A DNA stretch of 60,033 bases, taken from contig JAFNJB010000049.1 of NCBI GenBank assembly GCA_017601245.1, forward strand, positions 1 to 60,033, given 5' to 3'. Positions 31,471 through 34,034 of the stretch are shown here, in pieces (within the stretch, counting starts at the first letter, position 1; the number at the start of each line of letters is the position of its first letter). The notes under the pieces were generated by a model. The model was not told where the DNA came from, ran no database searches, and saw only the letters and a list, made by a program, of their open reading frames with translations. A program made the translations under genes and the position numbers. Origin of the DNA: Candidatus Brockarchaeota archaeon. GTDB taxonomy: Archaea; Thermoproteota; EX4484-205; JAAOZP01.

Positions 31471-32274
31471 CTACTTCTTAACCTGAATAGTCACGCCCAT
31501 TGCAGTTAGGACTGATCCAGTACAATAATATGCTAATTCTACAGGGAGAGTACTGTTAAGCCTTGCAACGCTCATAGTAAGGTCTCTCAACGGTGTTATG
31601 GAAGTAGCGATGCCAAGCATAATAAGCACTATTCCAGGTATTATTGTGGCGAGCGTGAACGACCTCTTTGGAAACTCCGTTCTAATATCACTGATAAGTT
31701 TACGCTCTGGAACTATGCCGGGTATTGCAGTGGCAATTAATCGGATTAGCAGTGGGGTTAAGAGAAGCATGAATGGAAGCATTGTGGCAAACCAGTATAT
31801 TGTTAAGCCGATTGAGAGGAAAGAAAGTTTTTCAATTGAAAAGGGAAGCTCGTAGAGGAACAGAGACTTATAGAGGAAGACGTAGAGGAAAGCAACTATA
31901 GCGTTTCCAATTATGAGGGTTAAGAGCGAAGCCGCTATGAACCTAGACCAAGTGAACTTCTTCTTCAATATTTCCCCGTAAATGTAAAAACCTATGAAGT
32001 TTCCAGGTACGGCTGCAATAAGGCTCCCGATGTGTAGCGATCCTCGTTTCATCGAATCGGCAATCAATGTGCCTATTGCAGCTCCTAAGGCGGAGGGAAG
32101 CGGGCCGAAGAATGTTCCAAACAACGCAGGTATTACAACAGCCGGCCTGAATTGACCAAAGCCCCAGGGGGAGGGGATATAGGCTGTTGAGTAGCATCCG
32201 ACAGCGTAAAGGGCTGCGCAAAGAGCCGTGGCGGTTACGAGTAGAGATTTACTATTTCCAGTCTTAGTGGACAT
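31471..32274 (-). CDS. ECF transporter S-component (paralog A)
   Basis: Polytopic; AL.AALYAV, FRPAVVIPALFG..FGP...ALGAAIG..IAD, SL...VP.NF.G. Confidence 0.75.
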   Translation of the reverse strand: MSTKTGNSKSLLVTATALCAALYAVGCYSTAYIPSPWGFGQFRPAVVIPALFGTFFGPLPSALGAAIGTLIADSMKRGSLHIGSLIAAVPGNFIGFYIYGEILKKKFTWSRFIAASLLTLIIGNAIVAFLYVFLYKSLFLYELPFSIEKLSFLSIGLTIYWFATMLPFMLLLTPLLIRLIATAIPGIVPERKLISDIRTEFPKRSFTLATIIPGIVLIMLGIATSITPLRDLTMSVARLNSTLPVELAYYCTGSVLTAMGVTIQVKK

Positions 32275-32357
32275 TTGTTGAATGCATTCTACAGATTTTG
32301 TATAAACCTAGCGTATTTATTTTTAAAACAGTAAGTAACTACATATAGCGTAAATAC

Positions 32358-32376
32358 TTTACGTATCTTACGTAAA
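32358..32376. promoter_or_regulatory. Perfect 8-3-8 inverted repeat TTTACGTA-TCT-TACGTAAA (candidate operator)
   Basis: Read directly; lies in the 107-bp gap upstream of ECF S-component A. Confidence 0.5.
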
Positions 32377-32381
32377 TGTTT

Positions 32382-33218
32382 TCAATCGATTTCCGTTAAA
32401 ACCCTATAAGCAGCTCCAACAGCCACTGCGTATTCGGGCAATTCAGGAACCACTGCTTTGGCATTGAAGCAGGAGAGTACTCTTTGAATACTCTTCAAAA
32501 CGGGAGGGAGTGTAGCCACCCTGCCGACTAGAACTATTTTATCTTCGAGGCCTAATTTGGATGCAGCCAAGTAGCTTACGGATGAGATGACTTCTCCAAC
32601 AAGGTTGACAATCCCCGCGGCAAGATCCTCTTGGCTAGAAGTGTCTCCAACCTTACCCAGGTTTGAAGCAGTCATATCTGGAGATAGGATTCCAATACCC
32701 CCTCCGACAATATCACCTACGGTGAGATCTACTCTCCTAGAATCACCTTTCTCAGCCATTTCAATCAATACGCTTACGCTAGATATTCCAAGTATCTTCT
32801 TCGATAACCCTAAGAGGGTTCCTCCACCCACGCCAGTGCCACCCACGTGCCTTATCTTCCTACCGTTCTCCCTAACCTCTATCAGTGCAGTGCCAGTACC
32901 CATACTCACTACCAGGGCCTCGTCCAAGCCTGTTAACACCACTCCTCCAATGCCTGCAGCAGTTATCTCATCCACTTTAACAACCCTCAAGCCCAAGATG
33001 TTATCTGGAAGCTGGCGGCTACGCCCACCAGCCATTGCAATAACATCAATATCTTTCAACGAGCAGCCCATCATCATAACGAGCTTACCAAGTAGACCTA
33101 TAGATGTTGCCAAAGGGTCTGAAGAGGGCATTTCACTTACACTCAGAATCTTCTTGTCTCTCAAAGCTACGGCTTTTGTAGTAGAGCCACCTATGTCAAC
33201 ACCTATTGCAGTCTTCAA
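32382..33218 (-). CDS. Type II (CoaW/Fumble-like) pantothenate kinase
   Basis: GVDIGGSTTK, DE..A...G, VSMGTG, GGTGVGGGT..GL, GD...VDLTVGDI, ASN.GK. Confidence 0.85.
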   Translation of the reverse strand: MKTAIGVDIGGSTTKAVALRDKKILSVSEMPSSDPLATSIGLLGKLVMMMGCSLKDIDVIAMAGGRSRQLPDNILGLRVVKVDEITAAGIGGVVLTGLDEALVVSMGTGTALIEVRENGRKIRHVGGTGVGGGTLLGLSKKILGISSVSVLIEMAEKGDSRRVDLTVGDIVGGGIGILSPDMTASNLGKVGDTSSQEDLAAGIVNLVGEVISSVSYLAASKLGLEDKIVLVGRVATLPPVLKSIQRVLSCFNAKAVVPELPEYAVAVGAAYRVLTEID

Positions 33219-33245
33219 CTTCTAAGAAGCGGTTTAAAGGAACTT

Positions 33246-34034
33246 TTAACCCTTATTACCAAACGTTGGTTTCAGAAACGGAAAGGCCCTGTAAATAACA
33301 TCCAGTATTGGGGGCACCAGTAGTATGAACGGTATTTCCGTACCAAATACCCAGAGGAAGAAGTATATTGCCAACGCTAGGTCTATCCTATCACCGGTGA
33401 TTGGCAATCCGAAAATCTGGCTGTAAAGCCATATTCCGAAGCCTATCCATAGACCACCTATCAATAGGCCCAATGTGCCACCCACGTAGTAGCTCAAGTA
33501 TTCCCTCCTTAGAATTGCTCCAACCAGGCCGAGTATGAATATGATTATCGCTAAGAGGAACAACATTGTTGAAATCCACTTAGCATCCGTACCAACCATC
33601 CCCATTGAAACCATGTATTCAACATAGGCTAAGGGCCCTAGTGCAGCAACACCCAGGAATATAAGTGGTATTGAAAACTTCCAGCCTTTCCACTCCCCCT
33701 TAGACCTTCCGACTCTACCGAGTATGTAGAAACCCAGGAAGTTGGCAGGCACTCCTGCTATTAGGCTCAACAAGGGGTTTGTTTGACCAGTAGCGTAGAA
33801 GACGTATAAGTCGCTGAGGAAAATGCCTATTGCAGCACCCATGCCCCCGACGCTGGGCCCGAATAACATTGCAAAAACTGCTGGAACGAAGACTGCTGGC
33901 CAGAACCTGACTACTCCTAAAACAGGTGTGAAAATCCCTAGGAAAGTCGCTAGCCCTATGACTGTGTATAGTGCAGCACAGACTCCGATTGCCACTATCC
34001 TCCTCGCGGGAGCTTTCTGGTTTAAACCAGCCAT
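33246..34034 (-). CDS. ECF transporter S-component (paralog B)
   Basis: CAALYTV, VRFWPAVFVPAVFAMLFGP..GG.GAAIG.F.SD, SL..GVPANF.G. Confidence 0.75.
   Translation of the reverse strand: MAGLNQKAPARRIVAIGVCAALYTVIGLATFLGIFTPVLGVVRFWPAVFVPAVFAMLFGPSVGGMGAAIGIFLSDLYVFYATGQTNPLLSLIAGVPANFLGFYILGRVGRSKGEWKGWKFSIPLIFLGVAALGPLAYVEYMVSMGMVGTDAKWISTMLFLLAIIIFILGLVGAILRREYLSYYVGGTLGLLIGGLWIGFGIWLYSQIFGLPITGDRIDLALAIYFFLWVFGTEIPFILLVPPILDVIYRAFPFLKPTFGNKG

Follow-up and report, generated by a model that had tools for sequence, protein, structure and literature searches.

The contig JAFNJB010000049.1 of a Candidatus Brockarchaeota archaeon (assembly GCA_017601245.1) was analysed over a stretch of 60,033 bp (referred to as the window), in which three co-oriented genes encode an energy-coupling factor (ECF) transporter S-component (S-A), a homologue of type II pantothenate kinase (PanK-II), and a second S-component (S-B). 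Gene content, predicted folds, synteny, and the presence or absence of pathway genes make it very probable that this locus is a salvage module for precursors of coenzyme A (CoA), and they favor, with somewhat less assurance, the fuller statement that it serves the salvage of a late CoA precursor, with pantetheine or pantethine (its disulfide) as the likeliest compound. The ligand of S-A and S-B, the substrate of the kinase, and the regulation of the module are inferred. In the proposed pathway, S-A, and probably S-B, would bind pantetheine or pantethine outside the cell and dock on a single shared EcfA-EcfA'-EcfT (EcfAA'T) energising module (encoded on contig C19), after which the probably co-transcribed PanK-II homologue would phosphorylate the 4' hydroxyl to yield 4'-phosphopantetheine. 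An archaeal phosphopantetheine adenylyltransferase (PPAT; contig C20) and then a GTP-dependent dephospho-CoA kinase (DPCK; contig C7) would finish CoA. Such a pathway would skip the missing CoaBC steps as well as those of PanB, of pantoate kinase (PoK), and of phosphopantothenate synthetase (PPS), and would make the organism a pantetheine auxotroph. A divergently encoded AbrB-PhoU protein may regulate the module.

The complement of CoA genes in the source genome (1.30 Mb in 61 contigs, 92.5% complete) sets the frame for this proposal. Archaeal PPAT (NF001985, 149.6 bits vs. a cut-off of 104) and GTP-dependent DPCK (DUF359, 121.7 bits) were both found in it, while PPS (PF02006), PanB (PF02548), CoaB (PF04127), CoaC (PF02441), and type III PanK (PF03309) were not, nor was any PanK type besides PanK-II, nor (by tblastn) a PoK-like GHMP kinase. 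The genome thus displays the gene pattern of the pantetheine shunt: PanK, PPAT, and DPCK were found in it, and the searches returned neither CoaB nor CoaC nor the genes for making pantothenate de novo. Since CoaBC was not found, 4'-phosphopantothenate would be a dead end, and the kinase product usable by PPAT must be 4'-phosphopantetheine, which in turn points to import of pantetheine or pantethine. An earlier interpretation of the locus (referred to as the sequence-only reading) had proposed a pantothenate/pantetheine salvage module, possibly with two substrates for the two S-components (e.g., pantothenate versus pantetheine or pantoate). Its notion of CoA-precursor salvage stands, whereas pantothenate as the useful substrate is not supported, as CoaB and CoaC were not found, and pantoate is disfavored by the missing PPS. 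The genes it had pointed to as informative split accordingly into PoK and PPS, which were not found in the genome, and ecfAA'T, of which one set was found.

The CoaB gap is not explained by the incompleteness of the source genome, because profile searches detected CoaB in 0 of 16 same-genus genomes vs. 11 of 15 genomes from other families of the phylum. Both figures derive from a first sample of 41 relatives, in which the remainder of the order yielded a single, sub-threshold CoaB match (20 bits) and in which PanK-II was present in 14 of the 16 same-genus genomes. A second, phylum-wide sample comprised 201 genomes, each at least 85% complete. CoaB was detected in 127 of these, and also in all 14 control genomes (controls gave the expected result in every search), while PanK-II was present in 31 genomes from at least eight families. 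PanK-II and CoaB never occurred together in any of the 201, so that none of the 31 PanK-II genomes carried CoaB. Moreover, the CoaC profile found nothing in the same-genus genomes or in the PanK-II genomes of the phylum sample, and PPS was not recovered from any of 10 tested genomes with the module, among which were closed or 99–100% complete ones. Comparisons inside families gave a like contrast for S-A and CoaB: the seven genomes of family f15 that carry S-A are all without CoaB and the two without S-A have it, and in family f34 one genome (G144) has S-A without CoaB and another (G162) has CoaB without S-A. As a separate observation, three genomes of genus g5 in the same order (G021, G022, and G024) carry an S-B-type gene only, which adjoins an AbrB-PhoU gene in G021 and G022; PanK-II, CoaB, and full-length S-A were not found in them by the searches run.

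The argument for pantetheine rests chiefly on the linkage of a single S-component family with PPAT and two unrelated kinases, and on the way this family tracks the loss of CoaBC. In 31 of the 31 PanK-II genomes, the contig with the kinase also bears a match to the S-A profile at a distance of at most about 1.2 kb from it, and since the pairing recurs in every PanK-II genome sampled, the arrangement of S gene and kinase is not a matter of chance. The S gene concerned is a full-length S-A type in 26 genomes and an S-B type in five (G044, G096, G100, G107, and G180). S-A stands directly ahead of the kinase in other families too (with 38–40% identity for S-A and 46–52% for the kinase), and S-B follows the kinase in part of the genus only. 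A further 30 genomes carry a full-length S-A without PanK-II, and in all 16 loci fetched from these (L022–L037; e.g., L026:5066-7276) a GHMP kinase of ca. 300 aa directly follows S-A, with PPAT as the next gene in four of the 16. The best NCBIfam matches of these GHMP kinases are to pantoate kinase (105–144 bits vs. cut-offs of 380–500). PPS was found in none of the five such genomes tested, and since these S-A-linked kinases occur without PPS and mostly without CoaB, they cannot act as canonical PoK; their features suggest that a PoK paralogue was co-opted as another type of pantetheine kinase. In two Bathyarchaeia loci, PPAT likewise neighbors the S gene and its kinase. A single divergon in family f19 consists of PPAT, an S-B-type gene, and PanK-II, the S-B-type gene standing beside both others in the five genomes listed above. 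The link of two unrelated kinases and PPAT to one transporter family points to an imported pantoyl compound that becomes a PPAT substrate after one phosphorylation.

The genome context fixes only the entry point after CoaBC, and some S-B-type genes occur without a kinase neighbor, which would also suit import of a phosphorylated or larger precursor (e.g., 4'-phosphopantetheine or dephospho-CoA), with the kinase acting on another compound or only recycling internal pantetheine. We hold this to be quite improbable, since a kinase stands beside the S gene in every PanK-II genome and in every GHMP-type locus fetched, with two unrelated kinase folds involved, and such linkage is hard to explain if import needs no phosphorylation. 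For pantetheine as the substrate, both type I and type II PanKs have been reported to phosphorylate it.

The kinase itself matches the Pfam Fumble family (PF03630) with 86.2 bits (cut-off 28.5), and its alignment to the NCBIfam type II PanK model NF009842 runs over the full length (residues 2–273 of 278 on model positions 2–272 of 277). Among proteins of solved structure, it comes closest to S. aureus PanK-II, human PANK1-3, and yeast Cab1, with PDB matches down to an E-value of 8e-14. In an alignment of 20 archaeal homologues, D8, G10, T14, and K15 of the phosphate-1 motif (D8-IGGSTTK15) are nearly invariant, and E84, G107-T108-G109-T110, and G127-T128-G129 through G133 are invariant; E84 is the equivalent of the catalytic glutamate (E70 in S. 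aureus, E138 in human). A weak match to BcrAD_BadFG (38 bits) was also obtained. Alignment to the solved structures placed A111 and the invariant H124 at the positions of a serine (human S195, S. aureus S102) and an arginine (human R207, S. aureus R113), respectively, and according to work on the human and Plasmodium enzymes these two residues contact pantothenate (PMC6199309; bioRxiv 10.64898/2026.01.22.701186).

This Ala plus His/Tyr signature (GTGTA ... His/Tyr-[VIL]GGTG) was recovered by a scan of species genomes across Clostridia, Bacteroidota, Binatia, Myxococcota, Spirochaetota, and DPANN archaea. Where the sequence-only reading had labelled the kinase as the eukaryote/Staphylococcus form, its sequence thus assigns it to a separate and widespread prokaryotic PanK-II subfamily, of which no characterised member turned up in the searches made. 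Fifteen of 24 genomes carrying this subfamily are without CoaB, including the complete genome of Brucepastera parasyntrophica, which fits the proposal of a bacterial pantetheine shunt. No conserved transporter was found next to the same subfamily in bacteria; the gene that most often adjoins it in Binatia and Myxococcota encodes a GNAT-domain protein and is not CoaBC. In a tree of 88 kinase sequences, all archaeal rows group with a clade of Myxococcota, Binatia, and Margulisiibacteriota, apart from Bacillota, Bacteroidota, and Spirochaetota (100/99 support for the split), and because of this split the archaeal kinase is not a recent import from the sampled members of the latter three phyla; the tree leaves the root and the direction of transfer unfixed. 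Sequences of the Staphylococcus type or from eukaryotes are not among the 88, and the kinase's relation to those enzymes is judged from motifs and scores.

Several observations weigh against pantetheine. The absence of CoaBC is read from profile searches of metagenome-assembled genomes, and a non-homologous replacement may exist. CoaB is present in five of the 30 genomes combining S-A with the GHMP kinase (G076, G123, G195, G207, and G205; the GHMP pairing itself having been read in the 16 fetched loci). The nearest homologues of S-B outside the genus, at 58–59% identity (L038:3070-4567 and L039:3043-4582), belong to two genomes that both have CoaB (G095 and G200) and have genes for a metallo-β-lactamase-fold hydrolase and for a rhomboid protease as neighbors but none for a kinase, which makes the ligand of S-B less certain than that of S-A; carriers of S-B-type genes may not all share the same pathway. 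Furthermore, the kinase scores 213.7 bits against NF009842, below the equivalog cut-off of 234. Finally, A111 and H124 had been considered as a sign of a substrate lacking the carboxylate, but this idea was dropped, since the same signature runs through the subfamily and nine of the 24 genomes carrying it have CoaB (at least seven of these nine with the His form, the motif being unreadable in two). As CoaB-positive genomes share the signature, it marks the subfamily and not pantetheine specificity.

Two further explanations were considered. In the first, pantothenate would be imported and converted by PanK-II to 4'-phosphopantothenate, from which an undetected or non-homologous phosphopantothenoylcysteine synthetase and decarboxylase (PPCS/PPCDC) would make phosphopantetheine. 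Annotation of the kinase family as pantothenate kinase speaks for this, as do the matches of the enzyme to characterised PanK-II proteins, the co-occurrence of subfamily members with CoaB in the nine genomes mentioned above (where they presumably act on pantothenate), and the presence of CoaB in the five S-A plus GHMP kinase genomes. Against this stand CoaB and CoaC profiles that came back empty in the source genome, the 16 same-genus genomes, and the 31 PanK-II genomes, even though the same search detects CoaB in 127 of the 201 phylum genomes and in 14 of 14 controls; an unknown enzyme pair would moreover be needed in many separate families. We therefore regard pantothenate import as unlikely. 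In the second, the module would serve no role in CoA metabolism: its kinase would be either a divergent ATPase of the ASKHA/BadF type or a sugar kinase, with an unrelated vitamin as the cargo of the S-components. The weak BcrAD_BadFG match, the score below the NF009842 cut-off, the missing serine and arginine that contact pantothenate, and a match of S-A to a RibU-type Pfam family at threshold only (see below) all lean that way. Yet the kinase aligns over its full length with the PanK-II model and keeps the catalytic glutamate, PPAT shares an operon or divergon with the module in several lineages, the other kinase linked to S-A is a member of the pantoate-kinase family, the presence of the module tracks the absence of CoaB, and a separate, strong RibU-like gene is present on contig C56, so that a function outside CoA metabolism seems highly improbable. 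Salvage of pantetheine or pantethine thus stays the preferred reading of the locus.

The assignment of S-A and S-B as S-components was supported at the levels of both sequence and predicted fold. Against PF07155 (the RibU-type S-component family; cut-off 26.7 bits), S-B scored 35 bits, which is over the cut-off, while S-A was at threshold (26.0 bits for the protein sequence, 28.7 bits in a six-frame search of the genome). S-A and S-B share 38% identity across their first 116 residues (E-value of 4e-16), and their family profiles match each other with 99.9% probability (E-value of 4e-36), and on this sequence evidence they are paralogues, as had been proposed. AlphaFold models built on the family alignments reached mean predicted local distance difference test (pLDDT) scores of 82.4 for S-A and 87.2 for S-B. 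In an exhaustive VIA structural search, the best match of the S-A model was 4hzu_S (Z-score of 15.0, root-mean-square deviation (rmsd) of 2.8, 163 of 164 residues aligned) and that of the S-B model was RibU 5kbw (Z-score of 16.2, rmsd of 2.9, 168 of 170 residues aligned). The top 15 matches for either model were exclusively ECF S-components, and the next unrelated chain followed at a Z-score of 6.5 (S-A) or 6.9 (S-B). For S-A, a Foldseek search of the PDB returned no more than weak matches (best E-value of 0.02, to ThiT), and its fold was settled by the VIA search. Both proteins are accordingly predicted to have the six-helix core fold of ECF S-components. In the models, S-A carries an extra helix pair inserted into this core (residues ~117–175), and the S-B core (residues 8–190) is followed by an extra C-terminal helical hairpin (residues 202–267).

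Neither protein could be equated with the pantothenate S-component PanT. The S-A family profile matched no solved S-component in the PDB at E-values up to 1, PanT (4RFS chain S and 6ZG3 chain H) included, and FolT-type chains were the only PDB matches of S-B by sequence. In the structural search, PanT (4rfs_S) reached a Z-score of 13.1 with both models, i.e., below RibU, ThiT, and 4hzu_S. S-A and S-B are thus not PanT by sequence, and their structural likeness to PanT is no greater than that to RibU or ThiT, which bears out the earlier description of an S-component family unlike classic PanT. As a side observation, four S-A frames in other genomes (G007:C46:7746-8495, G011:C2:154720-155469, G017:C8:4537-5088, and G205:C1:448935-449654) each contain one in-frame TGA, for which a sequencing error, a pseudogene, or recoding could account.

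With regard to energisation, the AxxxA motif in transmembrane helix 1 (TM1), which serves docking on EcfT, is present in S-B (A20-A-L-Y-A24) and in the S-A family consensus (AALYA), the S-A of the window having T24. The genome encodes one EcfAA'T module, in which a CbiQ/EcfT gene (98.8 bits) follows two ABC ATPase genes on contig C19, and about six S-type genes, including ThiW and a RibU-like gene. One EcfAA'T module together with scattered S genes is the layout of group II ECF transporters.

As the sequence-only reading had described, S-B, PanK-II, and S-A are co-oriented: the three open reading frames lie on the minus strand at the coordinates given in Table 1, two with S-component folds and one with PanK-II family matches. 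Since only 27 bp separate the S-A stop codon from the TTG start codon of the kinase, S-A and the kinase are probably carried on one transcript, and a spacer of 107 bp lies between the kinase and S-B. A TATA-like TTTATAC box was identified at 34061-34067 (minus strand), 26 nt ahead of the S-A ATG, and another at 32300-32306, 25 nt ahead of the S-B ATG. By general knowledge of archaeal promoters, this spacing suggests separate, leaderless transcripts, and S-B probably has a promoter of its own.

Table 1. Positions of the salvage locus and its adjoining features in the window.
Feature	Position	Strand	Remarks
S-A: ECF S-component of an archaeal family without earlier description	33246-34034	-	262 aa; candidate pantetheine-binding subunit
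Type II PanK homologue (ASKHA superfamily)	32382-33218	-	278 aa; TTG start; proposed pantetheine kinase
S-B: ECF S-component paralogous to S-A	31471-32274	-	267 aa
AbrB/SpoVT (MazE-like) and PhoU domain protein	34142-35143	+	Matches to PF04014 and PF01895; divergent from S-A
Divergent intergenic region between S-A and AbrB-PhoU	34035-34141		107 bp; TATA-like TTTATAC; TACGTTACGTA at about 34103-34113
Intergenic region ahead of S-B	32275-32381		107 bp; TTTATAC; four TACGTA/TACGCTA copies at 32309-32374

TACGTA/TACGYTA repeats occur in both 107-bp spacers, in each case upstream of the S gene's TATA-like box. Elements of the divergent S-A spacer are kept at loci of the same genus, and the conservation of the repeats within the genus is partial. 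The window holds 16 copies of TACGTA, three of them inside the two spacers. The repeats could serve as an operator for the divergently encoded AbrB-PhoU protein, whose gene is present in one copy in the genome. Homologues of this gene stand divergently beside S-A- or S-B-type genes in the same genus and beyond it, including other families of the phylum (f4, f18, and f38), the genomes concerned being G021, G022, G097, G165, and G172. The AbrB-PhoU protein is thus a candidate regulator that, judging from this arrangement, may control the module. Beyond it, at 35163-37916 on the minus strand, lies a gene whose 917-aa product combines two AAA+ ATPase stretches with a Lon protease domain at the C-terminus; this protein is longer than a typical archaeal LonB and shows a weak STAND/NACHT-like match at its N-terminus.

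If correct, pantetheine salvage by this module would explain the CoA supply of archaea without PoK and PPS; Bathyarchaeota and Korarchaeota have been reported to lack both, and no other route was named (PMC6650551). The module beside a kinase was counted in 61 of the 201 sampled genomes, in lineages with relatives labelled Brockarchaeota, Bathyarchaeia, Nitrososphaeria, and Korarchaeia-like. We consider it about evenly balanced whether S-A and S-B are the first dedicated pantetheine/pantethine importers and a large block of the Thermoproteota consists of obligate pantetheine auxotrophs that run a three-step shunt via PanK-II or a recruited pantoate-kinase paralogue. Uptake of pantetheine or pantethine was still called unknown in a 2025 review (PMC12570885), which does cite uptake of cysteinopantetheine by B. 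subtilis via TcyJKLMN (PMC11487621, as cited there). In the searchable literature, we found no paper on the S-A/S-B family or on pantetheine salvage in these archaea, none tying pantetheine to Bathyarchaeota, and none on a prokaryotic pantetheine transporter. The S-A/S-B family is a candidate for the microbial pantetheine transporter that is still missing, and the module as a whole offers concrete candidates in the form of two S-component subfamilies and two unrelated kinases. It would also imply that abundant uncultured archaea of sediments and hot springs rely on CoA breakdown products from their neighbors, a dependence of relevance to cultivation media and to the modelling of vitamin cross-feeding.

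The components of the module are of known kinds, i.e., an ECF S-component, a PanK-II, and a pantetheine shunt, while the S-component family itself is without earlier description. The kinase belongs to the same ASKHA fold family as the type II PanKs (CoaW; S. aureus 2EWS/4M7X, human PANK1-3, and yeast Cab1) and keeps their DIGGSTTK, GTGT, and GGTGVGGGT motifs together with the catalytic glutamate; it differs from them by Ala111/His124 in place of Ser/Arg, by its sub-equivalog score, and by its setting in a genome without CoaBC. The S-A partner kinase of the sister lineages belongs to the GHMP family, like archaeal PoK, but occurs without the PPS that accompanies PoK; the source genome has no such gene.

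At the level of the pathway, the closest counterpart is the pantetheine shunt (variant Apn; Rodionov et al. 2019, PMC6593275), which was proposed for 91 gut bacteria without CoaBC, known vitamin B5 transporters being present in 12% of them only (PMC6593275). Both combine PanK, PPAT, and DPCK with the lack of CoaBC and of de novo pantothenate genes. In contrast to the bacterial variant, PPAT is of the archaeal type here and DPCK is GTP-dependent, a PoK-like GHMP kinase replaces PanK in sister lineages, and the kinase operon includes a dedicated transporter gene, whereas the bacterial transporter is unknown (PMC6593275, PMC12570885). As to this transporter gene, S-A and S-B resemble the S-components of group II ECF transporters (RibU, ThiT, FolT, BioY, and PanT 4RFS/6ZG3) in their six-helix core (Z-scores of 13–16), in the Ala-rich TM1 motif of S-B and of the S-A consensus (AALYA; the S-A of the window has T24), and in being encoded by scattered S genes with one EcfAA'T in common. 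They depart from these by the internal two-helix insertion of S-A and the C-terminal hairpin of S-B, which give ca. eight predicted helices each, and from PanT in particular by a ligand that is probably pantetheine instead of pantothenate.

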